Positions 1,319-39,400 of a DNA stretch of 51,069 nucleotides are shown here, piece by piece. The notes beneath the pieces were generated by a model, which was given only the letters and a program-made list of their open reading frames with translations, did not search any database and was not told the origin of the DNA. The stretch spans positions 1-51,069 of the forward strand of contig CAYMAH010000029.1 in NCBI GenBank assembly GCA_964388435.1, read 5' to 3'. Position numbers and translations under genes: made by a program. The stretch is from Candidatus Micrarchaeota archaeon (GTDB taxonomy: Archaea > Micrarchaeota > Micrarchaeia > Norongarragalinales > UBA8480). Within the stretch, counting starts at the first letter, position 1. Every line of letters starts with the position of its first letter.

Positions 1319-1875
1319 AAAGAGAAACAACTGGAATTGTTCTGGACTATTTTCCGCATGGGAAGTCAAGCGAGTCCCTTGCAGAGCCAACAGCTCAGGT
1401 TTTAGGGGAGGATTACTTCACCTTGCTTGAAGTGGTAATCCCGGGAAGCGTTTCAATAAGCGACAAGATTCTTCTTGACAAATCAAATCCAGCGTGCAAA
1501 ATTGAAAGAATTAAGAAAAGAATAACCTTCCAAGAGCTAAGCGTTACCAGTCAAAATCAGCTTAAAAACTTTATAAAGGAAATAGTGGTTAAAAAGGAAA
1601 AAGATTTTGTACGGTTCATAAACACTGCCACTGCCATAAACATAAGAAGTCACTCTCTTGAATTACTACCCTCGATTGGAAAAAAGCACCTAAACCTTAT
1701 CTTGGACGAGCGGTCAAAAAAGCAGTTTGAGAGCTTTGAGGATATTAAAAAAAGAATTCCCCACCTGACGAGCGTTCCAGATATATTTGTCGAAGAGATA
1801 ATGGAGGAAATAAAGGGAAACGCTAAATACTATCTTTTTTCAAAGCCTCCATTCCAGAAATTCGAACGGTACTAA
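1315..1875 (+). CDS. DUF655-family putative RNA/nucleotide-binding protein
   Basis: GIVLDYFPHGK N-terminal OB-like motif and C-terminal HhH-like LLPSIGKKHLNLILDER. GTGA overlap with the rpoF stop. Third gene of the conserved archaeal operon. Confidence 0.72.
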   Translation: MKRETTGIVLDYFPHGKSSESLAEPTAQVLGEDYFTLLEVVIPGSVSISDKILLDKSNPACKIERIKKRITFQELSVTSQNQLKNFIKEIVVKKEKDFVRFINTATAINIRSHSLELLPSIGKKHLNLILDERSKKQFESFEDIKKRIPHLTSVPDIFVEEIMEEIKGNAKYYLFSKPPFQKFERY

Positions 1876-2492
1876 CAAGTAGTGCTGATGGGAGTTTCAG
1901 AGCAGTTAACGCTTAGAGCGAAATCCGAAGTGTTAACCTCAAAAAGATTTTCAGGAGTGCACACCGCGCCGTTACCTCCGTTGCTTAAATTCAGGTAAGC
2001 GGGAGTATAGTTTTGAATGAAAACATTCCAATTCTGATTTTCTGAAACGCTTTTTGAAAAACCGGAAAAGTTTGATGCCAAAGTATATGAAACCAAAACG
2101 TTGAAAGTGTAATTATTTGGAGAATTTGAAAGTGTATTAACGCAGGTTAGAACAGGCTGTGTTGAATTAAATCCTATCGCCGAATAGGATTGGTTTGAAA
2201 GAATAAGCGAAGAGTTTGAAAAATAGTTTACAAGCGTTGAATTCAAGTAAGAGCAGAAGTTTTGAGGCTGAACGGTGCAATTATAAGCTTCAAAAGCGCT
2301 GTCGGCAATGGCGTCGTGGATTGTTGAATTGAAAAAGCTTACCGCTTCACTTGCTTTCTCGGCAACCATGTCGCTTTCCATCGCCGCCACGCTGCTCTTC
2401 CTCTGGTTTCCAAGGCTGATCATAGCGTAGGCGAAGAATATTAAAATTATCGCTACTATTGCGATGATTGTTATTGAATAAAAACCTTTCAT
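1872..2492 (-). CDS. Pilin-like protein P6 (class III signal peptide), secreted glycoprotein candidate
   Basis: MKG|FYSITIIAIVAIILIFFAYAMI is a short leader plus hydrophobic helix. 12 N-x-S/T sequons, 6 Cys, C-terminal Cys. ATGA overlap with the upstream gene. Confidence 0.62.
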   Translation of the reverse strand: MKGFYSITIIAIVAIILIFFAYAMISLGNQRKSSVAAMESDMVAEKASEAVSFFNSTIHDAIADSAFEAYNCTVQPQNFCSYLNSTLVNYFSNSSLILSNQSYSAIGFNSTQPVLTCVNTLSNSPNNYTFNVLVSYTLASNFSGFSKSVSENQNWNVFIQNYTPAYLNLSNGGNGAVCTPENLFEVNTSDFALSVNCSETPISTTC

Positions 2493-2875
2493 GGCAGCGT
2501 CACCCAAGCATTATAAACACTATTGGTCTGATTCGCGCTTTGGCTTGAAAGACAAGAAGTATTAACGCCATAAACTAAATAACAACTTCCGCTGCAGTTG
2601 CAAATACCGGGATAAGCGTAAAAAACAGAATGGATTGAAAGGTTTGAAGAAAGTGGTGTTTCGGTCGATACATTAAAACCAGTTAAAGAATTGAAAATCG
2701 AGGGAGTTATCCCAGCTTGATATTGGTATTTCAACTGTAGATAATCATTGCCAAGAATCCTCATTGAATTAAAACTCTGAACATAGGAAGGCTGAAAGGA
2801 ATTGAACAGAGTGTAAAGGCTTAAAATTGCTATCAAACTTAAAAGCCCATCAACGGTGAATATTATTCCTTTCAT
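2489..2875 (-). CDS. Pilin-like protein P5 (class III signal peptide)
   Basis: MKG|IIFTVDGLLSLIAILSLYTLF. 5 sequons and 4 Cys (GICNCSGSC...SC). The ATG at 2875 is preferred over the GTG at 2884. Confidence 0.6.
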   Translation of the reverse strand: MKGIIFTVDGLLSLIAILSLYTLFNSFQPSYVQSFNSMRILGNDYLQLKYQYQAGITPSIFNSLTGFNVSTETPLSSNLSIHSVFYAYPGICNCSGSCYLVYGVNTSCLSSQSANQTNSVYNAWVTLP

Positions 2876-2877
2876 TT

Positions 2878-3237
2878 TCAGCACCCTTCAACCTCAAGAA
2901 AACAACCCGCGCCGCAGCTGACTGGCGAGGATAAATTAATATTGACATTCGTAAGCCTTTTTCCAACCAGCACCTGATTGCACTGCAAAGAAGTGCAATT
3001 GTTGAAAACAACCCCCCCAACACCGCTTTCAACCGCGCACCATTTTTGAGGAAGATAAGAAACGCTTGAATTTGAAACAATGGCATTTGCGATAACCTGC
3101 TCAGCGTTCGGCTGAAAAACCACTATCGAAGAATATTCTCTTTGAAGAAACTCCATGTAATGAGTGGCCACTCCAAGTGAAAAAGTGAAAAGCAGCGCTC
3201 CTATGAGAAGATCAAATGTAAGCCATTGCCCTTTCAT
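2878..3237 (-). CDS. Pilin-like protein P4 (class III signal peptide)
   Basis: MKG|QWLTFDLLIGALLFTFSLGV. 6 Cys, ends ...EVEGC. The internal ATG at 3237 is preferred because the upstream basic extension overlaps P3. Confidence 0.65.
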   Translation of the reverse strand: MKGQWLTFDLLIGALLFTFSLGVATHYMEFLQREYSSIVVFQPNAEQVIANAIVSNSSVSYLPQKWCAVESGVGGVVFNNCTSLQCNQVLVGKRLTNVNINLSSPVSCGAGCFLEVEGC

Positions 3238-3242
3238 TTTTT

Positions 3243-3650
3243 TCAACAACCTCCTAAAACCACATTTACGCTTCCGCTTGAACCTTCCAAACATACCGTT
3301 TCTCCGCATGCGAATGAACTGCTTGAAGGGTTAATGCCGCACAAGCTTTGAACCGAAACCGTCTCGTTGGTATCATTTGAAAACATTGTCAGCATACCGC
3401 TTGAAAAGCTTATCCCATACGAAATGAAGTTTCCATCTTTTAAAACGCATGGCATTGAATAATTTCCCTCCACCTGATTAATGCAATTCTCATTAATGAT
3501 ATTGGCAAAGCTTTGCAGCGCAACCTGCTGCTGAGTATAATAATTGGGCGTGTCAGAGTAAAAATAATTTATGAGATTAGTCATCCAGCCTATTATTATT
3601 ATTAAAATAAGAAAGACAAAATACAATTCAAGGCTTATCTGTGCTTTCAT
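3243..3650 (-). CDS. Pilin-like protein P3 (class III signal peptide)
   Basis: MKA|QISLELYFVFLILIIIIGW. 6 Cys, ends ...LGGC. ATGA overlap with the P2 stop. Confidence 0.7.
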   Translation of the reverse strand: MKAQISLELYFVFLILIIIIGWMTNLINYFYSDTPNYYTQQQVALQSFANIINENCINQVEGNYSMPCVLKDGNFISYGISFSSGMLTMFSNDTNETVSVQSLCGINPSSSSFACGETVCLEGSSGSVNVVLGGC

Positions 3651-4042
3651 TGAAATACCACACAATAATGATAATAACCTATGACACTACAATAACCAGA
3701 GATATTACTTGTATCAATATTCTGCCCGGTTATTGCAATATTTGTGGCGTTGAGTATTCCATCACTCACATCCTCCACCACGCCTGTGTTCGAGTTGGTG
3801 ATTTGAACTCCGTTTAAATAAAGGTGGGGATAAATAGTGAAGTTTGACCCGCTCAAATTGAAAGCCAGCGTGGTGAAAGCAAGTGATGAATTTCTTGCGG
3901 TGTAATTCAAGAGAAAGTTTCTGGAGGCGCTTAGGCTTATTGTTTCCTGAATATAATTGCCTACGTTTAATAATATGACCACTATAAAAGCAACTATTAT
4001 TGAAACTACAAGCAAGTACTCAATGGCAGTCTGCCCTTTCAA
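3647..4042 (-). CDS. Pilin-like protein P2 (class III signal peptide)
   Basis: A TTG start gives MKG|QTAIEYLLVVSIIVAFIVVILL, a canonical archaeal pilin KGQ-x-A-x-E motif. 6 sequons, 2 Cys. TTGA overlap with the P1 stop. Confidence 0.75.
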   Translation of the reverse strand: MKGQTAIEYLLVVSIIVAFIVVILLNVGNYIQETISLSASRNFLLNYTARNSSLAFTTLAFNLSGSNFTIYPHLYLNGVQITNSNTGVVEDVSDGILNATNIAITGQNIDTSNISGYCSVIGYYHYCVVFQ

Positions 4043-4476
4043 TTTAGTTGAGTACAATTGACAACCACCCCTCCATTATTACTTACAACGACGCTCAGCC
4101 ACCCCTGCTGGTTACACTCGAAATTGATTGTCGGCGGGAAAAACAATGTTTCTCCTGTCACGTTATAATTGCTATTGAAATTAGTGACATTGCTACTTTC
4201 AGTGCAATAAATGTTAGAGTTGGAGGTAGTTGGAATAAAGCAAATTGTATTTGGTGGCACGAAAACAGTGGTTGAAACATTCGCTCCAACCCCGCTCAAC
4301 CCGACAAAATTAATGTAAGAGCTCACCACGCCTATGGCGTTTCTGCCAAGACCGAGGTTGTCTAAAACCGTGTTTTGGCTGATCTGGCTTGCGGCAACCG
4401 AAAGCAGCGCTCCAGCAAGCGCGAAAATAAAAGCGGCTATTATAAAAAACTCAACACTTACCTGAGCGCGATCCAT
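4039..4476 (-). CDS. Pilin-like protein P1 (class III signal peptide)
   Basis: MDRA|QVSVEFFIIAAFIFALAGALL. 4 sequons, 4 Cys. Overlaps the peptidase stop by 19 nt. Confidence 0.7.
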   Translation of the reverse strand: MDRAQVSVEFFIIAAFIFALAGALLSVAASQISQNTVLDNLGLGRNAIGVVSSYINFVGLSGVGANVSTTVFVPPNTICFIPTTSNSNIYCTESSNVTNFNSNYNVTGETLFFPPTINFECNQQGWLSVVVSNNGGVVVNCTQLN

Positions 4477-5438
4477 AAAAACACCATGAACACAAACCCG
4501 ACGCCCAGAAAAGGCGCGAATGGGAACGATTCTTTAATAGAAATATGTTTAACTTTCATCCTTTTTAATTCTTTTATTTCGCTTTTTGTAATTCCTTCAG
4601 CGTTTGTTGTTATCAAGGGATTGGCGGCCTCTCCTTTTAAAGACTTGCTTATAACCTCGCTTAAACCCAGTTCTTTAACCACTCCGTTTTCAATAAAAAG
4701 ATTATTGGCGGGAATCATCCCCTCTTTTAAATCTTTAACTTCAACCTCTTTTCTTAAAATCTCATTAGAAGTTATTGAAAAAGCTTGTATCAGAACAATT
4801 GAAATAAAGCTTAAAACCAAGGCAATTGCCAGAAAAAAAAGTGTCGTCATGCCATAAAAGTAAAAACCCGCGGCCAGCAATATCAAGCCCAAATAAAAGG
4901 GTATTTTAATAATGAAAAAAACAACGAGCAATAAGATAAATGCGATTAAACTTATGTTTAAATTGATTTTTAAAAAAAGCAGTATGCTGGCCACGGCCGC
5001 TGATGATATGGATGAGCCGACCGCCATTTTAAAAGTTTCAAGCACGTTGAATCTTTTTCTTAAATCAATCAATTCTTTGAAGTGAATCACTATAAGAAGA
5101 GGAATTGAAAGAACGGCGGAAGCAAAGAAAAGATACAAAATCCCTTGCCAGCCGAATCCAGTCAGAAAAAACATCAAACCGTTTAAGCCTACAAAAAACT
5201 TAACGTCTCCCCCTCCCCAAACTCCGAGTTTATAAAGAATATACGCAAAAACAAAGCTTGCAACCGCGATTAAAATGAAATCAAAAGCCGAGGACTCGAC
5301 AACAGAAAGAATAAAACCGCCCATTACAACCGCGTAATTCAACAAATCCGGTATTACCCTTTCTTTCAAGTCAATGTAAACCGCTATTGAAGCGTAGACA
5401 ATTGAAATTAAAAGCAAAACATAAAATTGTAACATCAA
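4458..5438 (-). CDS. A24-family prepilin/preflagellin peptidase (PibD/EppA/FlaK-like) with inserted soluble domain
   Basis: Two Asp motifs: AVYID(23)LKERVIPD and WGGGD(78)VKFF. Polytopic membrane protein with terminal FPFAPFLGVG helix. An approx 85-aa hydrophilic insert precedes the last TM. Confidence 0.82.
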   Translation of the reverse strand: MMLQFYVLLLISIVYASIAVYIDLKERVIPDLLNYAVVMGGFILSVVESSAFDFILIAVASFVFAYILYKLGVWGGGDVKFFVGLNGLMFFLTGFGWQGILYLFFASAVLSIPLLIVIHFKELIDLRKRFNVLETFKMAVGSSISSAAVASILLFLKINLNISLIAFILLLVVFFIIKIPFYLGLILLAAGFYFYGMTTLFFLAIALVLSFISIVLIQAFSITSNEILRKEVEVKDLKEGMIPANNLFIENGVVKELGLSEVISKSLKGEAANPLITTNAEGITKSEIKELKRMKVKHISIKESFPFAPFLGVGFVFMVFLWIALR

Positions 5439-5467: not shown

Positions 5468-5896
5468 TTATTGCTGTTTTTTATATCCCCTGATTCTTTC
5501 CTTTTCCCGGTTTTTTGAAACCTCCCTTCCAGTAAAGTTGCTAACAACCTGCTCTGCGAAAGCTTCAAGCCTGAAAAGCTCGTCAATTGAAGGTTTTTGA
5601 ATTCCTATTTTATGAAATAATTTCTGAGGGTGTCTCACGGATTTGAATGGTTTTAACTTCTTTTCCAGCTTGCCGCAGAACCTTTTAGACCCCACACAAA
5701 CTAACGCCGTCTTTCCATTCAATTTAAATTTTTGTTTGAACCTTATTTTTTGGGAGACGCAAGCGAAAATCAAATCGCCTGAAATCTCCTCATCAAGACT
5801 TTTCAATTCATAACTCTCCCCGGCGTTCAAAACTCCGGTGGCCACTATACTTGCAATATAACGCGAATCGTTGTTAAACCCGATAATTATCTTCAT
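5468..5896 (-). CDS. Hypothetical cytoplasmic protein (142 aa), no recognised family
   Basis: Long ORF co-directional between the hairpin array and the peptidase. MKIIIGFNND start and basic C-terminus. A flavodoxin-like alternation is only vaguely suggested. Confidence 0.5.
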   Translation of the reverse strand: MKIIIGFNNDSRYIASIVATGVLNAGESYELKSLDEEISGDLIFACVSQKIRFKQKFKLNGKTALVCVGSKRFCGKLEKKLKPFKSVRHPQKLFHKIGIQKPSIDELFRLEAFAEQVVSNFTGREVSKNREKERIRGYKKQQ

Positions 5897-5963
5897 CGTG
5901 TATATTCTAATGTGGGGAAAAATTGAAAAAGGTTAATGGTTTCTTTTTTTCCAATGCTTTTTT

Positions 5964-6257
5964 TTATTTTCCTAGAATTACGGGTGCGTCTGCGTCAAGC
6001 CTTTTCATTCTCTGCTCTGACAAGCCTCTCAAATAAGTGGCTACGGCGAAAGCTGGAATAAGCAAAATCGAACCTTGAATAAGCAAGTAAATGCCCGCGA
6101 ATATGAAAACAAAGCTTAAGCTGTCAATAAGCGTTTTCTCCTTTAAAATGTCCAAATGCTTGTTTAAATAGTCCCACCTGGTTGAAACGTCAAGAAAAGG
6201 CTCGGGCTTGTCAACTGTCATCGAAGTTGACATTAATTTTTGTTCCGCCATGCTCAC
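5964..6257 (-). CDS. Small two-TM hairpin membrane protein, paralog A of a 5-gene array
   Basis: TRWDYLNKHLD motif, then helices SLSFVFIFAGIYLLIQ / SILLIPAFAVATYL. GTGA overlap with B, or ATG at 6251. Confidence 0.6.
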   Translation of the reverse strand: MSMAEQKLMSTSMTVDKPEPFLDVSTRWDYLNKHLDILKEKTLIDSLSFVFIFAGIYLLIQGSILLIPAFAVATYLRGLSEQRMKRLDADAPVILGK

Positions 6258-6697
6258 TTCACCTCAATTATAGGATGTGTTTTCAAATCCTCCACTCCGA
6301 AGGCATTTCCAATGACCCTTTCACTCCAATAAACTCCCGTTATAAAAGCGAATACCAAAGCGATGTAAATGTTTATGAAATATGCTGCTGTTGTTAGAAT
6401 TAAGAATATAATAGAATAAAAATATGATTTGTAGGCCTCTCCTATGGTGGCGCTTTTAAAATCGCTTGCAAATTGATCGTTAAGAAAATCTCTTCTCTCG
6501 ACAATGTCCGCAAACCTTAGTTTTTTTCCGTCCCCCATGAGCTTTCCTTTTTTTGTTGCTTCTTGCTTTTCCTTCTCCGTCATTTTTTCAGGAAGCTCGT
6601 CAGAAGGAGATGAAAGCGGAAGAAACATGGCGGTGTAACTATCCATTTCAGCATTGCTTTCTTTTTTTATTTTAATATTCTTCAGCATAAAATTCAC
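6254..6697 (-). CDS. Small two-TM hairpin membrane protein, paralog B
   Basis: ERRDFLNDQFA motif, then YSIIFLILTTAAYFI / IYIALVFAFITGVYW. Longer acidic/lysine-rich N-terminus. GTGA overlap with C, or ATG at 6688. Confidence 0.6.
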   Translation of the reverse strand: MNFMLKNIKIKKESNAEMDSYTAMFLPLSSPSDELPEKMTEKEKQEATKKGKLMGDGKKLRFADIVERRDFLNDQFASDFKSATIGEAYKSYFYSIIFLILTTAAYFINIYIALVFAFITGVYWSERVIGNAFGVEDLKTHPIIEVK

Positions 6698-6954
6698 TTT
6701 ATATTTTCAATTAAAAAACCCGATCCAAAGTAAAAAGCGACTATCCCGGCAATTGGAATAAACAAGCTTGGCTGGTTTACCAAAACGTAAAACCCGCCTA
6801 AAATCAAAATCAAGTTTATCATAAAATCGGGAATAACCATGGTGTGCTCGTTCATCGCCTGATTGAAAGTGTACGTGTTTTCAACTGGCTTTGCTACTCC
6901 CAGCTTTTCAAGCAGCATCATCAGCTTCACTTCCCAACTTGTTTTTATAGCCAT
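6694..6954 (-). CDS. Small two-TM hairpin membrane protein, paralog C (motif degenerate)
   Basis: The hairpin GGFYVLVNQPSLFIPIAGIVAFYFGSG aligns with paralog A AGIYLLIQGSILLIPAFAVATYLRG. The N-terminal R-x-D-Y-L motif is not evident. Confidence 0.55.
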   Translation of the reverse strand: MAIKTSWEVKLMMLLEKLGVAKPVENTYTFNQAMNEHTMVIPDFMINLILILGGFYVLVNQPSLFIPIAGIVAFYFGSGFLIENIK

Positions 6955-6961
6955 AAAAAAA

Positions 6962-7291
6962 TCACTTTAACAAAGCGACAACCCTCGAATTTGATTTTAC
7001 TATCGCTCCATTCCAGAATCCAATCATCCAATATCTCCCGGCAAGCGCCGCGCTTATCAAAGAAACCACCGGAATGTAAGGAATGGTTATTATTGCAAAT
7101 GCGACGAATGTTATGGCTTTGGCTTTGGCGCTGTACTGATTTTTCCAAAGTCCTATAAAATCGTTTAAATAATCTCTTTTCTTGACTTTTTTTGTAAGGC
7201 TTAACTCCTTCTTGGATTTGAGCGTTAAAAGCGTGGTCTGAGGTAAAGGTTGAAACGACGTTAATTGTTGTTGCTCCATTCTCTCATTCAC
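6962..7291 (-). CDS. Small two-TM hairpin membrane protein, paralog D
   Basis: KKRDYLNDFIG motif, then AITFVAFAIITIPYI / VVSLISAALAGRYWMIGF. GTG start in GTGA overlap with E, or in-frame ATG at 7279. Confidence 0.6.
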   Translation of the reverse strand: MNERMEQQQLTSFQPLPQTTLLTLKSKKELSLTKKVKKRDYLNDFIGLWKNQYSAKAKAITFVAFAIITIPYIPVVSLISAALAGRYWMIGFWNGAIVKSNSRVVALLK

Positions 7292-7605
7292 CTTGTCACA
7301 ATCATGTTTTTATTTTTCATTATCACGTTAAGCATGGTGTTTTTCTTTATGTGTTCTCCGTATGCCTTTCCGGCAATCAAAGCGAATAACGCGCTTAGAA
7401 AAATGCTGTATTGAAATGAAAAAACTGCTATTATGAAAAAAACTATTGCCAAAGCCCTGTAGGTGTGCCATTCCCGCCATGTTTTTATTCCATCTTCAAG
7501 GAAATCCTTTCTTGTCTTCAACTCCATCACAGAGTGGTTATTGGTGTCTATTGGAAGAACGAATGGCGTTTCCATTCCTTGATAATATGGCTGTGCCGGA
7601 TCCAT
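7288..7605 (-). CDS. Small two-TM hairpin membrane protein, paralog E (first gene of array)
   Basis: TRKDFLEDGIK motif, then ALAIVFFIIAVFSF / IFLSALFALIAGKAYG. ATG start. Confidence 0.6.
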   Translation of the reverse strand: MDPAQPYYQGMETPFVLPIDTNNHSVMELKTRKDFLEDGIKTWREWHTYRALAIVFFIIAVFSFQYSIFLSALFALIAGKAYGEHIKKNTMLNVIMKNKNMIVTR

Positions 7606-7623
7606 GCCTAAATAAGAGCAAAA

Positions 7624-7637
7624 GTTATTTATAAACT
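7624..7637 (-). promoter_or_regulatory. TATA-like box upstream of the hairpin-array cluster
   Basis: Minus strand reads GTTTATAAATAA about 20-30 nt upstream of the ATG at 7605, with no SD in between. Compatible with a leaderless or short-leader transcript. Confidence 0.3.
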
Positions 7638-7811
7638 TGTCGGTGGTAACATTTAATTTAAAAGCTTGTCATCAAACCTTTTTTTTCTAAAATTTCAATT
7701 TTATATTGCCTTATGCATATCTTTTCTTTTAAAAACCATGTTTTTGTAAAACTTTTTCAGCAATACTTTTTTTATTGAATCAATATCAAACTAAAACAAG
7801 AGTGAATAGAA

Positions 7812-8208
7812 ATGGAAGAAATCATATCGGTTAAAAACATTTCAAAAAGCTTCCAAACCTTTGAAAACGAGGAAGGTTCGGTCAAAAGTCTTTTCAACAG
7901 AAAGCATTACCTGAAAAAGAGTTCGCGGTATTTTCACACATAATTTTAAGACCGGAAAGTATCTAAACTGGTTTTTCAACATGGTGAGTCACGCTTCTCA
8001 ATATCCCCTGCCTGTTTATGGAATTCTGGGCACTATCCTGCTTACAATTGCAATACCTGTTGGCTTGGCTTCATTCTACCCCGCGCAACCTATTTTTTCA
8101 AGAATAAGCCCATCCCGTTTTCCCGATATCTGAGTGTTTTACTTTCATACTTATTATAATAAAACAAGTTTTTGGCTTTTAAAGTCCTATTCAAGCGGCG
8201 GAGGATAA
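7812..8208 (+). pseudogene. Remnant of an ABC-2 type transporter: ATPase N-terminus fused by deletion to a frameshifted permease C-terminus
   Basis: MEEIISVKNISKSFQTFENEEGSVKSLF is a typical ABC ATPase start, stopping after 43 aa. An overlapping frame reads ...NWFFNMVSHASQYPLPVYGILGTILLTIAIPVGLASFYPAQ (ABC-2/DUF990-like permease tail). A third frame ends FWLLKSYSSGGG-stop, the family-typical C-terminus as I recall it. Confidence 0.6.
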
Positions 8209-8260
8209 AATTCAAACAAAGCGATAGGTTTAAAATTTTACACGAATCTAAATTTAGTCA

Positions 8261-8689: not shown

Positions 8690-8798
8690 AACAAGCATGC
8701 ATGGATGGCGCCCTTGATTAGGTGAAGGGGATTGTCAACAATGCGTGCGTAAAAAACTGTTTTGAGTTCTTTTTTTAAAAAAAAAGGTGAATTAAAAC

Positions 8799-10109
8799 AT
8801 GGGAAAAACTTACATTGACACCGTAAAATATCAAATAAAAGCGGATTTCGAAGTGGATGGAATCGTTGAAAAACCAGACATTGTCGGAGCAATATTCGGC
8901 CAAACCGAAGGCCTTCTAGGAGACGAGCTTGAATTGAGAGAGCTTCAGAAAAACGGAAGAATTGGAAGAATAGAAATAGACGCTCAAATCAGAAACGGAA
9001 AAACCGCTGGGTTAATAATAATTCCCTCAAGCCTGGACATGGTTGAAACAAGCATTTTAGGGGCCAGCGTTGAAGTGGTTGACCGAGTGGGGCCATACGA
9101 AGCCAAGATAACCGTTGAAAAAATAGAAGACTCCAGAAACATGAAAAGAAAACAGGTAATGGACAGGGCTAAAAACCTTCTCAAAACGCTTATTTCAAAC
9201 GAGATTCCCGAAACAAGAGAACTCACTGATTTATTAAGAGATCAGGTTAAGACAGCCGAACTGATTGAATACGGAGAGGAAAAACTCCCTGCAGGGCCCG
9301 AGATAGATTCAAGCGAGAGCATTATTTTTGTTGAGGGAAGAGCCGACGTTTTGAATCTTCTTAAAAACAATATACTTAACGCTATTGCAATAGGCGGTGC
9401 AAACGTTGGAAAGACCATAACAAGGCTTGGAAAGGAAAAAGAAGTCACGGCGTTTCTTGATGGTGATAGAGGCGGGGATTTGATAGTCAAAGAACTGGCC
9501 GCCGTAACCGATATAGATTATGTTGTAAAAGCGCCTGACGGAAAGGAAGTGGAAGAATTAACAAGAAAGGAAATAATACAAACCCTTAGAAAGAAAATAC
9601 CACTTCAGGAGTTTCTAGGCCTCATGACTGAAAAATCTGAAAGGAAAAGATTTCATGATTTTAGAGACGGCAGGGACAACCACGGTTTCAGGGACAGGAA
9701 CGAAAGAAGGTACGAAGAGAGAAGGCCCGAGGAAAAAAGACCCGACGTCATTGAAAAAAGAGTTGAACCCATTCAAAAGCCGGTTCAAATGCCAATCCAA
9801 CCGGTTCAACAGCCGGTTGAAAACCCAGAGGCAAAGCCGGAAATTTTAGCCAAACTCAAAAGCCTTGAAGGCAGTCTCAAGGCAAGAATATTGGATGAAA
9901 AGCTTGAAACAATAAAAGAAGTTCCAATAAGAGAAGTGATGCAGGCTATAACCGAATCTCAAAACGCAAAAGCGGTTATATTGGACGGAATAGTCACGCA
10001 GAGGCTGGTGGATCTTTCAGAGCAGAAAGGATTGAAATATATAGGCGGGGTTAGAAGCGGGACCATAACGAGAAAATCAACCGTTTCAATAATCCTGTCA
10101 TCGGAGTAA
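8799..10109 (+). CDS. dnaG: Archaeal DnaG primase (TOPRIM)
   Basis: N-terminus MGKTYIDTVKYQIKADFEVDGIVEKPDIVGAIFGQTEGLLG is the archaeal DnaG signature. TOPRIM motifs IIFVEGRADV...DGDRGGD. A-run plus GGTGA SD. Confidence 0.9.
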   Translation: MGKTYIDTVKYQIKADFEVDGIVEKPDIVGAIFGQTEGLLGDELELRELQKNGRIGRIEIDAQIRNGKTAGLIIIPSSLDMVETSILGASVEVVDRVGPYEAKITVEKIEDSRNMKRKQVMDRAKNLLKTLISNEIPETRELTDLLRDQVKTAELIEYGEEKLPAGPEIDSSESIIFVEGRADVLNLLKNNILNAIAIGGANVGKTITRLGKEKEVTAFLDGDRGGDLIVKELAAVTDIDYVVKAPDGKEVEELTRKEIIQTLRKKIPLQEFLGLMTEKSERKRFHDFRDGRDNHGFRDRNERRYEERRPEEKRPDVIEKRVEPIQKPVQMPIQPVQQPVENPEAKPEILAKLKSLEGSLKARILDEKLETIKEVPIREVMQAITESQNAKAVILDGIVTQRLVDLSEQKGLKYIGGVRSGTITRKSTVSIILSSE

Positions 10110-27864: not shown

Positions 27865-27978
27865 TCACTTCAAAACGCTTGTTTTAATAAAATAAGCCAC
27901 GACCGTAACGAAAACAACCGCCGCCGCTATCAACAAAAGATATTCTATAGCAGTCTGACCTTTTTTATTTTTTATCAT
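27865..27978 (-). CDS. Mini-pilin, 37 aa (signal peptide plus single helix); not in ORF track
   Basis: Own translation: MIKNKKG|QTAIEYLLLIAAAVVFVTVVAYFIKTSVLK-stop. ATGA overlap with the stop of the platform gene at 27975. Shares KGQTAIEYLL with P2 at 3647..4042. Confidence 0.65.
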   Translation of the reverse strand: MIKNKKGQTAIEYLLLIAAAVVFVTVVAYFIKTSVLK

Positions 27979-28982
27979 ATGGTACCACCTATTATCATTG
28001 AACTGGCAAGCTTGCCCACAGTGAATATAATCGTAACCAAAAGCATTGTGACAGGAGCGTAGATAATGTATTTAAACATCACTCCATCTCTTATCAAGCC
28101 TATTGCCACAAGCGTTATAATCGACTCTAAAACCAGGAAAGTAAGCAAAAGCTGTTGCATGGCTATATTCCTCCAAACATAAACCGGGTTTTGTTGGTTC
28201 AAACTGTTGAAACCAGCAATTAAAAACAATGCCAAAGTTGAATCGCTTGAAGCGAGCTGCTGAAGCGTTACATTGGCAGTTGAACTGGCAGTGCCTGAGG
28301 CCGCCATGCCACTGCTCATAAAGGTTATTATGGTTATAACAAAACCAAAAATAAAAGGAGCTAAAATCAAGCCTGAAATCACCAAAAACATTACGTGCAT
28401 CATGCTTCTCGAAGCTCTCTCTCTTTTAATCCTCTGAACATCCCTGGCATCCTCTGCAATTGCGTTTAAAACATCGGCAAGACCAGCCCCAGCTTTTCTA
28501 GCATCGATAACCACGCTCACCACTCTTTTAAACAATTCAGAACCTGAACCGCTTCCCAAGCCAAGCATCACATCGTCAAAACTCTTTCCCTCCCTCAAAG
28601 CCTTAAGCCCGTTTTTAAGATCGGTGCTTAAAGGCCCGTAATCAGCATTTGAAACCTCCTCCAAAGAAGTTTCAGTCGTCCCCCCTGCCTTTAACACAAG
28701 ACTCATATGCTTCAAAGCATCAGGAAGATTAGCCTCGATGCTTTCAATCCTGGAATTTCTTATCGAAATGGGAATTATTATCGCAAGGCTTGCAATTGCA
28801 ATAAAAGCAATAAAACCTATAAGAAAACCGTTGATTTGAAGATTTGGAATAAAATATTCAACAAGAAAATAACTCACTCCGCTAAGAACCATCGCCAAAA
28901 AAAACATGACTATAATGAAAACCTCAAAGCTGAGATTGATTCCAGTCCCAGCGTAAAAATTCTTTAAATCCTTATAATTCAT
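27975..28982 (-). CDS. Pilus platform membrane protein, single T2SSF domain (TadC/FlaJ-half-like)
   Basis: LPDALKHMSLVLKAGGTTETSLEEV...LREGKSFDDVM...IDARKAGAGLADVL is a GspF/T2SSF pattern, flanked by TM helices. Confidence 0.78.
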   Translation of the reverse strand: MNYKDLKNFYAGTGINLSFEVFIIVMFFLAMVLSGVSYFLVEYFIPNLQINGFLIGFIAFIAIASLAIIIPISIRNSRIESIEANLPDALKHMSLVLKAGGTTETSLEEVSNADYGPLSTDLKNGLKALREGKSFDDVMLGLGSGSGSELFKRVVSVVIDARKAGAGLADVLNAIAEDARDVQRIKRERASRSMMHVMFLVISGLILAPFIFGFVITIITFMSSGMAASGTASSTANVTLQQLASSDSTLALFLIAGFNSLNQQNPVYVWRNIAMQQLLLTFLVLESIITLVAIGLIRDGVMFKYIIYAPVTMLLVTIIFTVGKLASSMIIGGTI

Positions 28983-30118
28983 GTTGTAGGTTCTAACCTC
29001 CTAATCAAATAAAGAATCATTATCGTCATGAACAAAATGCCGATAAACAAGCTTAGCACAAGCACGAAGGCAATCCCCCCTCCGAAAACAGGAAGCTGAG
29101 CTACTGCGCTTAAAATGGTTAACATGACTGGCCCGACAACCGCGATCATGATATAACCTATGCTTATAAGATTTAAAACTTCTGTAAAATCTCTTATCTT
29201 CATCCTGCTTTCAAAAGAAACGTCATCCGCTATCGTGGTTATAATTTCAGCAAGATTCCCTCCTGTCCTCAAGGCCCTGATAATCTGAACCAAAGCTTTC
29301 TTCAAACCTTTTGATTTGGTTCTGATGCTCAACTTCAAAACCGCTTCCTCGGTGCTCATCCCTCCTTCCATGTCCACTAAAACTCTTTTAAACTCGTCGC
29401 TTAAAACACCATAATTGCTCTGAGCAATAGAGTTAAGAGAATTGCTAAAACTAACTCCCGCTTTAAGCTGAGTGGATAACTGCCTTAAAGCGAAAGGCAA
29501 TTCCTTGTCGATATCCTTAGCTCTCTCTCCTGCTTTCATTCCAGGATAGTAAATCATCAACAAGGAAGTGAGAATAAAACCAAGAACAGCAACTATTATA
29601 CTCAAAGTAACAGAATAGCCAATTCCCACCACGCTTAAAACAGGATTCAGGAAAATGCTCAAACTGCCAATTAAAATAAGAAGAAGAAACGCCACTATTA
29701 TTGAAATAACCGAAGATAATGCCATATACCCTTCGGGAGAAACGTTAATATTTGCGCTTTCAAGATTGTTCTTCAAACTGTTGGTTATTGGAAAAACGTT
29801 CATTAAATTTTGAATCAAAGAAAGCGGTTTTTCAAAAACAGTGTAAAAATTACCAAGAGCGTTGGAACTCTTATGAACCGAAACCTGAACCTCTCTCTTG
29901 ACCTCTTCAGTAGGAGCCATGACCAACCCCTTTCCTTCAACAGTTGTTTTAAGAGATTCCAGTTTCTTGCTGATATTTGTTTCCTTGGGAGCGTTCTTCT
30001 GCCTGAGCCTGTCGACAATCTTTTCAAGCTCCTCCTGCCTTCTTCTTTTTGACTCCGCGTCCTCCTCCTTTTCAACGTTCTCTTTTAAACTTGTAAGTTT
30101 TTTTTCAACCATTTTCAA
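28979..30118 (-). CDS. Pilus platform membrane protein, single T2SSF domain (TadB/FlaJ-half-like) with charged N-terminal extension
   Basis: LPFALRQLSTQLKAGVSFSNSLNSIA...MEGGMSTEEAV...IRALRTGGNLAEII. About 100-aa K/E-rich N-terminus. 4-nt overlaps on both sides. Confidence 0.78.
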   Translation of the reverse strand: MKMVEKKLTSLKENVEKEEDAESKRRRQEELEKIVDRLRQKNAPKETNISKKLESLKTTVEGKGLVMAPTEEVKREVQVSVHKSSNALGNFYTVFEKPLSLIQNLMNVFPITNSLKNNLESANINVSPEGYMALSSVISIIVAFLLLILIGSLSIFLNPVLSVVGIGYSVTLSIIVAVLGFILTSLLMIYYPGMKAGERAKDIDKELPFALRQLSTQLKAGVSFSNSLNSIAQSNYGVLSDEFKRVLVDMEGGMSTEEAVLKLSIRTKSKGLKKALVQIIRALRTGGNLAEIITTIADDVSFESRMKIRDFTEVLNLISIGYIMIAVVGPVMLTILSAVAQLPVFGGGIAFVLVLSLFIGILFMTIMILYLIRRLEPTT

Positions 30119-31662
30119 TCTCCGCGCTTAGTCCTCAAAATGTAATTCTGAGTTATAAAACAAACATCCTTCAACCTTCTCACCCCAGCCTCCTGCATCT
30201 TCCTTAAAATCTCCGCCCTGTTTGAAATCTCCTGATTCACAGCGCTCCTTGAAAGGCCGGTGTATCTCATAAGCGTTTGAACATAAAAAGAATTTAATTT
30301 GGTAGATTGAATCTCATCAACCGCGGGGTCCCAGGTATATAAAACCCTTAAGTCAGGAAGCTCTCCCTCCTTCTCTGAAGGGATAATTTCAGCTATTTCA
30401 GTAATTCTTCTTATTAAACCCTTCCTACGGTCATTAATCCTCTGCTGCATCACAATAAAATTCAAAGAATCAAGCATTATAACCGGAACTGAAATAGGAG
30501 GGCTGAACAAACGAGTCAAAGTCTCCTTCGCTGAATTGGCGTGAACCGTTCCCATACACCCGTCATGACCGGTATTCATTGCTGAAAATAACGTAAAACC
30601 TTCCTCCCCTCTTATTTCCCCCACAATAATCCTATCAGGCCTCATTCTCAAACTGTTCTTTACAAGATCATTCATCGTAATCTCTCCAACCCCCTCCATT
30701 CCAGGGGGCCTTGTCTCAAACCGAATCCAATGGCTCAAGGGAAGATTCAACTCCGCGGTATCCTCCACAGTCAAAACCCTTTCATTAGTAGGAATAAAAG
30801 AAGACAAAATGTTCAAAGTGCTTGTCTTACCCGAAGCAGTACCTCCTGAAATCAAAATATTAGCGGGTTTAGCGCCAAAACCGTCAGTAGCAAGCCAAAG
30901 AAAAGCGGCTATCTCAAGATTCATCGTTCTCAAATTCAAAAGATCTATTATAGTCAACGGGTCCTCCCTGAACTTTCTAAGAGTCAAAGTACTCCCATTA
31001 ACGCTTACAGGAGGGATGGTGGCGTTAACCCTTGTTCCATCGGGAAGCCTCGCGTCAAGCAACGGATTTTGAATGTCAATCCTCCTCCCGATATTCCTAG
31101 CAATCTTATCAATCAAATCCTTGATATCCTTGTCATCATAATAAACAACATTAGTAGTCATCATGTCATACTTTCTGTGAAAAACATAAACCGGCTTTCC
31201 AGGCCCTATAATCATGATTTCTTCAAGATTATCATCCTTGATTAAATCATCAATCAAACCATAGCCAACCATCTCCTTCAAAACAACATCAGTGTAAAAC
31301 TCCTTGGAATTAGGCGGCACTTTCAACTCAGGAGTGGAGTTGATGATATCCAAAATCTTATTCCTGTAAGCAAACCTCCTCTGCTGAGAAGTTTTATAAG
31401 TTTCGGTTTCAGTTTCAATAACCTTGGTGGCAATATCAATCAAAGAAGTGATTAAAATCTTCTCCTCCCCCAAATACCTTGGAACCGGAATCTCATAATG
31501 AAGCAAATCCTGCCCCGGAATCTTGTAAATCTTAACGTCCCCATAAGAAGCAACAAGGACATTATCCTCTTTCTTCTTCTCCTCCCCTATAATCTTTCTA
31601 ACCTCCTCTCCCTCCCCTTTTTCTGATTTTGCTTGAGCTATCAAATCTTCAAGTTTAGGCAT
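30115..31662 (-). CDS. Type IV pilus/archaellum-type secretion ATPase (FlaI/TadA/VirB11 family)
   Basis: Walker A GGTASGKTSTLN, Asp box LTVEDTAEL, Walker B RPDRIIVGEIRGEE, His box GHDGCMGTVHANS. Confidence 0.88.
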   Translation of the reverse strand: MPKLEDLIAQAKSEKGEGEEVRKIIGEEKKKEDNVLVASYGDVKIYKIPGQDLLHYEIPVPRYLGEEKILITSLIDIATKVIETETETYKTSQQRRFAYRNKILDIINSTPELKVPPNSKEFYTDVVLKEMVGYGLIDDLIKDDNLEEIMIIGPGKPVYVFHRKYDMMTTNVVYYDDKDIKDLIDKIARNIGRRIDIQNPLLDARLPDGTRVNATIPPVSVNGSTLTLRKFREDPLTIIDLLNLRTMNLEIAAFLWLATDGFGAKPANILISGGTASGKTSTLNILSSFIPTNERVLTVEDTAELNLPLSHWIRFETRPPGMEGVGEITMNDLVKNSLRMRPDRIIVGEIRGEEGFTLFSAMNTGHDGCMGTVHANSAKETLTRLFSPPISVPVIMLDSLNFIVMQQRINDRRKGLIRRITEIAEIIPSEKEGELPDLRVLYTWDPAVDEIQSTKLNSFYVQTLMRYTGLSRSAVNQEISNRAEILRKMQEAGVRRLKDVCFITQNYILRTKRGD

Positions 31663-39169: not shown

Positions 39170-39400
39170 ATGAAAATGACGAGTGTCGATGTGGATGACA
39201 AATGCTGGGTTTCGTGCGTTCTGCCTGTCGAAATGAGCGCCAAGCGCTTTCCAACATTCAAGAGGAAAATATCATACGCCGGAAATTCGTTAGTGGTTAT
39301 AATACCAGAAGATTTGGTAAAATTTTTGAAATTAAAAAAAGGAAGCGAAGTCGAACTGATATCATTAAATGACAAAATGTTCGCCGTAAAAGTTGAATGA
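39170..39400 (+). CDS. AbrB/SpoVT-like (swapped-hairpin) DNA-binding protein upstream of sufB
   Basis: KISYAGNSLVVIIPEDLVKFLKLKKGSEVELISLNDKMFAVKVE. Stop overlaps the sufB ATG (ATGA). An alternative internal start gives MSAKRF. Confidence 0.6.
   Translation: MKMTSVDVDDKCWVSCVLPVEMSAKRFPTFKRKISYAGNSLVVIIPEDLVKFLKLKKGSEVELISLNDKMFAVKVE

Follow-up and report, generated by a model that had tools for sequence, protein, structure and literature searches.

A conserved five-gene operon of small helical-hairpin membrane proteins in Micrarchaeota, possibly encoding one hetero-oligomeric complex

Introduction

Mic10, a core component of the mitochondrial MICOS complex, is a protein of ~100 residues, built as a single helical hairpin whose turn is very short and whose termini lie on the same side of the membrane; it oligomerises through Gly motifs, and its small-residue-rich membrane helices drive this assembly. 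Reticulons, DP1 and Yop1 carry ~30-residue hydrophobic segments interrupted at the centre; they exceed one membrane span in length, fall short of two and are read as wedges that occupy a single leaflet. The c/K subunits of ATP synthases are likewise helical hairpins, of 70–100 residues, which pack into rings by Gly/Ala-rich helix faces. Here, we describe an array of five small genes, named A to E, on the minus strand (positions 5964–7605) of a 51,069-nucleotide stretch of DNA from a Candidatus Micrarchaeota archaeon (contig CAYMAH010000029.1, positions 1 to 51,069, assembly GCA_964388435.1), hereafter the window. Array A–E is best read as a self-contained, Micrarchaeota-restricted operon whose five small cytoplasmic-membrane proteins form one hetero-oligomeric complex, a reading to which we assign a probability of about 0.5.

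DPANN archaea, Micrarchaeota among them, are very small symbionts that build their membranes from host lipids and whose membrane proteome is mostly unannotated. Lineage-specific small membrane proteins are common in their genomes. Array A–E had been pointed out in an earlier note made from the DNA letters alone, which took the five products for paralogous two-helix hairpins and proposed a pilus accessory module, an immunity-type array or a small oligomeric membrane complex.

Five tightly packed genes under purifying selection

The minus strand holds five consecutive open reading frames (ORFs) whose longest forms measure, from E to A, 97, 147, 86, 109 and 105 amino acids (aa), in agreement with the tandem ORFs of 86–147 aa first reported. 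Gene A (7288..7605, minus strand, like all five) encodes a putative helical-hairpin membrane protein of 105 aa, with an N-terminal PFVLP...T motif, the segment TRKDFLED, W43, a hydrophobic core at residues 51–79 and the C-terminal end ...KNMIVTR. Gene B (6962..7279), a paralog of A, encodes 105 aa from an ATG at 7279, its longest ORF (6962–7291, 109 aa) beginning at a GTG at 7291; it carries KKRDYLND, a PYIP turn and AGRYW. Gene C (6694..6954) encodes a predicted hairpin protein of 86 aa whose N-terminus holds a conserved segment of its own, LLEKLGvAKPVENTY, and whose C-terminal part holds FYFGS.F.IKNIK; it has neither the T-R..[YF]L motif nor the Trp nor the C-terminal Arg found in the other four. 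Gene D (6254..6688) encodes 144 aa from an ATG at 6688, the longest ORF (6254–6697, 147 aa) starting at a GTG at 6697, and combines an extended N-terminus (MFLPLSSPSDE, GKLMGDGK) with ERRDFLND and FAFITGVYWSER. Gene E (5964..6251) encodes 95 aa from an ATG at 6251, the longest ORF (5964–6257, 97 aa) starting at a GTG at 6257; it contains TRWDYLNKH, a QGS turn and the C-terminal end ...APVILGK.

The ATG starts of B, D and E follow from orthologs and database gene calls. Upstream of the ATGs of B and E lie AGGTGA and GAGGTGA, respectively, inside the 3' end of the preceding gene, and D and C have only a weaker AAGTGA as a ribosome-binding motif. With these starts, the A–B, B–C, C–D and D–E junctions are gaps of 8, 7, 5 and 2 nt. 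The 4-nt GTGA overlaps originally described are an artefact of taking the longest ORFs, at odds with orthologs and ribosome-binding motifs, and the tight packing of the genes stays. The 2–8-nt gaps, together with the ribosome-binding motifs inside preceding genes, suggest that translation of A–E would be coupled.

Against three relatives, the ratio of nonsynonymous to synonymous substitution rates (dN/dS) is 0.02–0.17 over the five genes at nearly saturated dS, a range that the CBS and A24 peptidase genes nearby share (A, 0.02–0.13; B, ~0.1; C, 0.10–0.17; D, 0.03–0.13; E, ~0.07). The five array genes are therefore real and under strong purifying selection.

A TATA-like element, TTTATAAATA (7626..7635, minus strand), is centred ~25 nt upstream of the gene A ATG. 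The ~50-nt block from TGTTACCACCGACAAGTTTATAAATAACTTTTG to the ATG is nearly invariant in four diverged relatives, and the DNA further upstream cannot be aligned. The element is probably an archaeal TATA box, and its spacing from the ATG points to a leaderless mRNA. At the other end of the array, the 67-nt spacer after E contains two T5 runs, TTTTTCAATTTTT (5918..5930, minus strand), which four relatives share although their spacers differ elsewhere. They are a candidate oligo-T terminator, which would make A–E a transcription unit of its own; they could instead belong to the promoter of the next gene, F.

Upstream of gene A, 655 nt (7606–8260) without an ORF of at least 60 aa separate the array from a divergent CBS gene. 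This spacer measures 134 nt in one relative (L002) and ~2.8 kb in another (L017), and the differences in length mark it as a variable insertion site. Scans of the array flanks for tRNA genes and Rfam families found nothing.

Four ancient paralogs and a fifth hairpin protein

Pairwise BLASTP/phmmer comparisons of the five proteins gave 8e-8 for A–B, 2e-4 for B–D, 5e-3 for A–E and 0.04 for C–E, values that are suggestive only in a five-sequence database. Profiles built from orthologs and remote members were then aligned with hhalign, using reversed-sequence profiles as a control. The probabilities were 97.8% for A–B, 97.8% for A–D, 97.3% for A–E, 98.2% for B–E and 94.8% for B–D, with E-values of 5e-8 to 6e-14 for these pairs; D–E reached only 44%, so D and E are tied through A and B and not directly. 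Gene C aligned with any other class at 31% or less (shallower profiles had earlier given 69%), and the reversed controls stayed at or below 9.8%. These alignments identify A, B, D and E as true paralogs. Gene C has the same hairpin layout, and the alignments do not establish its kinship to the other four. The original claim of five paralogs thus holds for A, B, D and E, with the D–E link indirect, and does not extend to C.

The four motif segments that had drawn attention to the array are all present: TRKDFLEDGIK in A, KKRDYLNDFIG in B, ERRDFLNDQFA in D and TRWDYLNKHLD in E. In an alignment of 116 sequences of the A, B, D and E classes, numbered after window A, the motif core is conserved: the Arg position is always basic (R32, 109 Arg and 7 Lys), Tyr or Phe follows at position 35 in 108/116 and an aliphatic residue at 36. 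T31 is kept in 80/116 and W43 in 83/116. Further conserved columns are R/K50, A78, G79, [YW]82, R/K99 (105/116) and hydrophobic residues at 101–102. The resulting signature reads T-R-x-[DE]-[YF]-[LIV], a Trp ~11 residues on and a basic residue, followed by an uncharged core of 29–31 residues that is broken in the middle, then [AG]-x-[YF]-[YW]-G and, at the C-terminus, R-x-hydrophobic-hydrophobic. All these features occur in the window proteins A, B, D and E; C does not have the full set. The family is fast-evolving, with ~25–35% identity where DnaG keeps 55–60%.

One order in at least 13 lineages

A word-indexed homolog search returned little beyond close orthologs: a handful of contigs of metagenome-assembled genomes (MAGs) syntenic over 20 kb, and few remote matches. 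When the A/B/D/E profile was run exhaustively with HMMER against 1.84 billion representative proteins, 52 matches resulted at E<=1e-3, namely 4 window orthologs, 2 false positives and 46 remote relatives. The remote relatives are small (88–193 aa) and sort into A-like, B-like, D-like and E-like classes, which places the origin of the paralog classes before that of the window's clade. Where the source is named, the matches come from ‘Candidatus Micrarchaeota archaeon’, except for the nearest MAG, labelled Marsarchaeota. This MAG contig (L017, JAMCXP010000014.1) is the closest relative of the window, with a DnaG 96% identical, and its NCBI label ‘Candidatus Marsarchaeota’ is probably a mislabel, since all other relatives found through DnaG or the array are labelled Micrarchaeota or Micrarchaeia. 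The two false positives, P0043 and P0062, are large Ig-repeat surface proteins (E 1e-6 to 9e-5) that matched compositionally through a repeated QWQYRNSS.D.WKNS segment, and they are a caution for profile searches with this family.

In four distant MAGs (L011, L012, L013 and L015), a tandem same-strand array contains genes that best match the A, B, C, D and E hidden Markov models (HMMs) in this order, with E-values of 1e-10 to 1e-25. The first gene of each remote array has gene A as its best match, the third slot is always gene C (E 1e-10 to 1e-15), the fourth is D and the fifth is E in all. In a sample unbiased with regard to the array, 80 GTDB species loci fetched via the neighbouring DnaG gene, the array lies upstream of DnaG and CBS in 10, again in the order A-B-C-D-E. 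Two more contigs, reached via E-type proteins, have the same layout, that of one ENA contig being deduced from gene sizes and positions only. Altogether, the order is found in L011, L012/L033, L013, L015, L021, L024, L025, L026, L027, L031, L035 and L097, and the array is present in at least 13 lineages. Every lineage has one copy per class, bar L011.

In L011, two tandem E-type genes (9458–9745 and 9757–10047) are the sole change in array copy number seen, and the C gene (8779–9003) looks truncated after the first arm. A further ORF of 44–49 aa with a single hydrophobic helix follows E in L012 (9667–9801), in L015 (9639–9788) and on the ENA contig (9327–9473), where it could encode a sixth subunit. 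The 67-nt E–F spacer of the window has no counterpart of it.

The fixed order, the single copy per class and the tight spacing in every lineage found make the small oligomeric membrane complex the best fit among the three options first put forward. They also bear on the proposal that A–E is a set of immunity-type, holin-like or toxin-antidote paralogs, or that it is a cassette of mobile or viral origin. An arrangement of small two-helix membrane paralogs in tandem is characteristic of holin and bacteriocin-immunity genes, and one weak PHROG holin match (E 0.16) was obtained. However, each class is present once and at a fixed place in every lineage, apart from the single E duplication of L011; the array is under strong purifying selection at a syntenic housekeeping site between Hjc and pyrG; and it has no lysis, toxin or defence partner, PADLOC returning noise only. 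A scan of IMG/VR with D found no relative. With a steady copy number, housekeeping neighbours and no viral or defence matches, an immunity array is highly improbable.

A hairpin with a short hydrophobic tip

Each of the five proteins has a hydrophilic N-terminus of 40–90 residues, followed by one hydrophobic stretch broken centrally by a polar residue or proline. Across 89 non-redundant members, this core measures 29–31 residues, holds a mean of 0.24 charged residues and is bordered by ~4 Lys/Arg per flank, with essentially none in the turn. The mid-segment break consists of Pro, Asn, Gly or Ser, and the turn has a Pro in 47% of members. The two arms of the core comprise ~13 and ~11 strictly hydrophobic residues. 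They differ in composition: Gly, Ala and Ser make up 49% of arm 2, which has 1.8 small-xxx-small motifs, against 31% and 0.9 in arm 1. Of the two-transmembrane hairpin seen earlier, the hydrophilic N-terminus and the centrally broken hydrophobic part stand, whereas the core is a single segment of 29–31 residues and not two full-length transmembrane helices.

An AlphaFold2 model of A, computed from a 32-sequence alignment, has a mean predicted local distance difference test (pLDDT) score of 76, and 79–94 in 10-residue blocks over residues 31–100; it replaced an earlier, poor run on 18 close sequences (pLDDT 59). The model has helices at residues 32–63 and 68–96, joined by a turn at 64–67. Each subunit is confidently predicted to form one long antiparallel helical hairpin with a hydrophobic tip. 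The most conserved part of this hairpin is its open end, where the N-terminal T-R..[YF]L and the C-terminal R-x-hydrophobic-hydrophobic are found. A single long transmembrane helix was considered and ruled out by the basic flanks on both sides, the Pro/Asn/Gly break in mid-segment and the confident hairpin model. Since both flanks are rich in Lys and Arg, the positive-inside rule implies an N-in/C-in topology with both termini in the cytoplasm. The arms are short for a full span, and the hydrophobic tip may be re-entrant, crossing the membrane only partly, although Trp, Tyr, His and Arg at the interface could lengthen the arms.

The array shares with reticulons the core of 29–31 residues with a central break, seen in the 89 members and at the 64–67 turn of the AlphaFold model. 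Reticulon-homology domains are eukaryotic and hold two such segments per protein, where the array proteins have one. Mic10 is alike in size, hairpin build and a helix rich in small residues, represented here by arm 2. It differs in being a homo-oligomer with GxGxGxG, where the array combines five different subunits with a T-R..[YF]L cap and a long predicted stalk in the cytoplasm; neither sequences nor profiles link the two, and organisms and compartments are unrelated. The Pfam profiles Reticulon, TB2_DP1_HVA22 and Mic10 matched none of the five window proteins or of 53 family members.

These features leave room for a membrane-shaping role, in which re-entrant hairpins would lie in the cytoplasmic leaflet only and assemble in the manner of reticulon/Yop1 or Mic10, so as to curve or organise a membrane built of host lipids. 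The invariant core length with its central Pro/Asn/Gly/Ser break, arms that fall short of two full spans, the small-xxx-small motifs of arm 2 and the basic flanks on both sides all suit such a wedge. A cultured Micrarchaeon has a membrane of ~97% tetraether GDGT-0 lipids, the same as its host, on whose lipids it depends (PMC8975820). This host-identical tetraether membrane makes the wedge attractive, as a tetraether monolayer should be hard to cross with 13-residue arms. However, the lipid data come from the cultured Micrarchaeon and not from the organism of the window, interfacial aromatics could lengthen the arms enough for spanning, the proteins match neither the reticulon nor the Mic10 families by sequence or structure, and the need for five different subunits is left unexplained. 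We regard the wedge as unlikely on balance, though to be taken seriously.

Alternatively, the five hairpins could be arranged as a ring, their helices enclosing a passage for ions or small solutes that the conserved Arg/Tyr cap would gate from the cytoplasm. Symbionts depend on uptake routes when their genomes are reduced, and five different two-helix subunits in a fixed stoichiometric order, a tightly packing arm 2 and the conservation of charged and aromatic residues at one hairpin end would fit a hetero-oligomeric channel. The core argues otherwise: it has no conserved polar or charged residue to line a pore, the 0.24 charged residues per core being conserved nowhere, and its arms appear to fall short of a membrane span. 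MscL, CorA, holins and other families of small channels showed no similarity to the proteins, and a channel is accordingly a doubtful proposition.

No match to a described family

Pfam and NCBIfam gave only noise for A–E, with nothing else at E<=1, and Pfam, NCBIfam, PHROGs and PADLOC gave noise for gene F as well. A Pfam scan of 53 family members returned scattered matches, each in one or two members, with no consistent family, and the longer remote C and D proteins likewise matched no consistent Pfam family. Profiles of the A class and of the whole family found nothing significant among PDB sequences; the top match (E 0.036) was rejected as a BRIL fusion artefact. Foldseek comparison of the A model with the PDB yielded generic helical hairpins only, all at E>1. 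Among the better superpositions are the alpha1-alpha2 hairpin of Vipp1/ESCRT-III and chemoreceptor tips (query TM-score 0.46–0.57, root-mean-square deviation 1.5–2.6 Å), which are soluble hairpins and whose likeness is one of shape only, with no evidence of relationship. Literature searches on the five-gene cluster found no mention of it. The statement that the proteins belong to no characterised family was thus borne out in Pfam, NCBIfam, PHROGs, PADLOC, PDB sequences and Foldseek-PDB: the family matches nothing described by sequence or by fold, and A–E is an orphan, clade-restricted operon whose build is unusually regular.

The hairpins could still belong to a known membrane machine, such as one of respiration, ATP synthesis, secretion or glycosylation, as small subunits so extremely diverged that they escape sequence recognition. 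Many known machines have more than one small subunit of hairpin form, the proteins of DPANN archaea tend to diverge strongly, and the generic Foldseek matches include small subunits of respiratory complexes. The c/K subunits of ATP synthase have an ion-binding Glu/Asp in helix 2, a polar cytoplasmic loop and termini outside, whereas the array termini are predicted to be cytoplasmic; no conserved Asp or Glu occurs in columns 51–79 of the 116 sequences, and there is no match to the Pfam family ATP-synt_C. Such a carboxylate would be expected of c/K proteolipids. The lack of significant matches in Pfam, NCBIfam, PDB sequences and PDB folds, the absence of genes of such a machine among the conserved neighbours and the confinement of the family to part of one phylum further make this origin quite unlikely.

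Genomic neighbourhood and the pilus genes

In the window and its close relatives, the array lies, as first described, upstream on the same strand of gene F, a prepilin peptidase gene and six pilin-like genes. Gene F (5468..5896, minus strand) encodes a soluble protein of 142 aa between E and the peptidase; it has no relationship to A–E and no Pfam match. The A24 prepilin peptidase (4458–5438, minus strand) matches Peptidase_A24 (8.6e-10) and Arc_PepC (2.4e-8), and the six pilin-like genes (1872–4476, minus strand) have class III signal-peptide-like N-termini (RAQ|VSVEF, KGQ|TAIEY, KAQ|ISLEL). Peptidase, pilin-like genes and F are neighbours and not part of the array. Genes for pilus assembly, all on the minus strand, lie ~20 kb from the pilin/peptidase cluster: a T2SSE-type ATPase at 30115–31662 and T2SSF/PilC-like proteins at 28979–30118 and 27975–28982.

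Outside the window's clade, the gene string is a different one: Hjc, A-B-C-D-E, pyrG (CTP synthase), a ~147-aa F-like protein, a KaiC-like ATPase and NUDIX. CTP synthase follows the array in 11/12 lineages outside the clade, the remaining contig (L027) stopping just past E. Hjc precedes it in 10/12; L011 has no Hjc match upstream of A, and the L027 match is an ambiguous 505-aa ORF that overlaps the CBS gene. In none of the 12 do the A24 peptidase or pilins adjoin the array (in L031, an A24 peptidase lies ~11 kb off, beyond DnaG). F of the window aligns over its full length with the post-pyrG gene of L021 (4335–4817) at 29% identity (BLASTP E 7e-10), which identifies it as the ortholog of the gene behind pyrG in other lineages. 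The peptidase and pilin block adjoins the array in the window's own clade only. There, pyrG and Hjc have left the position of the array, and the peptidase and six pilins now stand behind F, which marks the breakpoint of the rearrangement that placed the pilus genes beside the array. Because F is the post-pyrG ortholog and the array elsewhere lies between Hjc and pyrG, the adjacency to the pilus genes is a clade-private local rearrangement and not a functional link.

A pilus accessory or anchoring module, in which the five hairpins would work with the A24 peptidase and six pilins, for instance as the membrane platform of a type IV-like pilus, is consequently very unlikely. It draws on the same-strand position of the array directly upstream of F, the peptidase and the pilin-like genes in the window and its close relatives, and on the pilus ATPase and two PilC-like proteins that the window also encodes. 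The 12 distant lineages with the array at the Hjc/pyrG site and no adjoining peptidase or pilins, the displaced post-pyrG gene F and the conserved T-runs between E and F all count against it. The pilus linkage on which the original idea rested is thus missing in all 12 lineages found outside the window's clade. Moreover, A–E have hydrophilic N-termini and no class III signal peptide ([KR]-[GA]-Q or G, cleavage site, hydrophobic helix), and no pilus or archaellum family profile matched A–E (Pfam, NCBIfam) or, consistently, the 53 members. Accessory proteins of archaeal type IV pili and archaella are similar to the array only as small membrane proteins beside a peptidase and pilins in this window; the array differs from them in lacking a class III signal peptide, conserved linkage and a family match.

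In the window, SufB (39397–41988, plus strand) is interrupted by an intein whose domains are of the Hint/splicing and LAGLIDADG homing-endonuclease types, and RadA/Rad51 genes near the array in distant Micrarchaeota (L012, 1–1049; L015, 2045–4531) carry inteins with LAGLIDADG domains.

A model for the A–E complex

The proposed complex starts from a leaderless mRNA of A–E, which would be transcribed from the conserved TATA box and translated in a coupled manner. A, B, D and E would each fold into a long hairpin of antiparallel helices whose termini both lie in the cytoplasm, and gene C would contribute a fifth hairpin subunit of unrelated sequence. The uncharged tip of 29–31 residues would be buried in the membrane, where the Ala/Gly/Ser-rich second arm suits tight helix-helix packing between subunits, and the paired helix extensions would form a cytoplasmic stalk. 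At the membrane-distal end of the stalk, Thr-Arg..[Tyr/Phe]-Leu of helix 1 and the C-terminal Arg-x-hydrophobic-hydrophobic would build a contact site, either between subunits or for a cytoplasmic partner. A single co-assembled complex is suggested by the fixed order, one copy per class, tight coupling and strong purifying selection, and at the protein level by the invariant core length, the small-residue packing face and the conserved cytoplasmic cap. Its most likely role is that of a membrane-embedded anchor or scaffold, not a part of a pilus, with wedge-type membrane shaping as a serious variant of this role and a channel as a weaker one. The co-assembly, the topology, the partly spanning tip and the scaffold role are the elements of this model that we infer.

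Several observations weigh against such a complex. Fixed gene order and tight spacing are only indirect evidence of contact among the five proteins, and the fast evolution of the family could mean loose constraints rather than precise assembly. The neighbours (Hjc, pyrG, the F-like protein, the KaiC-like ATPase, NUDIX, CBS and DnaG) are all housekeeping genes and give no functional clue. When interfacial aromatics and snorkelling Arg are counted, the arms reach ~16–18 residues, and a two-pass transmembrane hairpin with an outer loop of 2–4 residues is possible. Finally, in 38 informative Micrarchaeota loci, defined by the presence of Hjc and enough flanking sequence, the array is missing beside Hjc in 30 and present in 8. 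It is not a universal core function of Micrarchaeota.

A more specific, tentative and rather unlikely form of the anchor or scaffold complex would be a hetero-pentamer, or a multiple of five, of re-entrant hairpins in one branch of Micrarchaeota, which would bend or organise the host-derived membrane of these lipid auxotrophs or anchor a cytoplasmic structure to it, as an independent counterpart of Mic10 and the reticulons.

Significance

The analysis defines a testable object: a five-gene operon with four ancient paralogs, a fixed order, a confidently predicted hairpin fold and a clear signature. It also corrects a tempting annotation error, the pilus label that a single lineage-specific adjacency had suggested. 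The main concrete gains are a signature that defines the family, the conserved order of its five genes and the dismissal of this misleading association. Should A–E turn out to act as a hairpin scaffold or as a pore, the array would bear on how DPANN cells organise the membrane that they borrow from their hosts.

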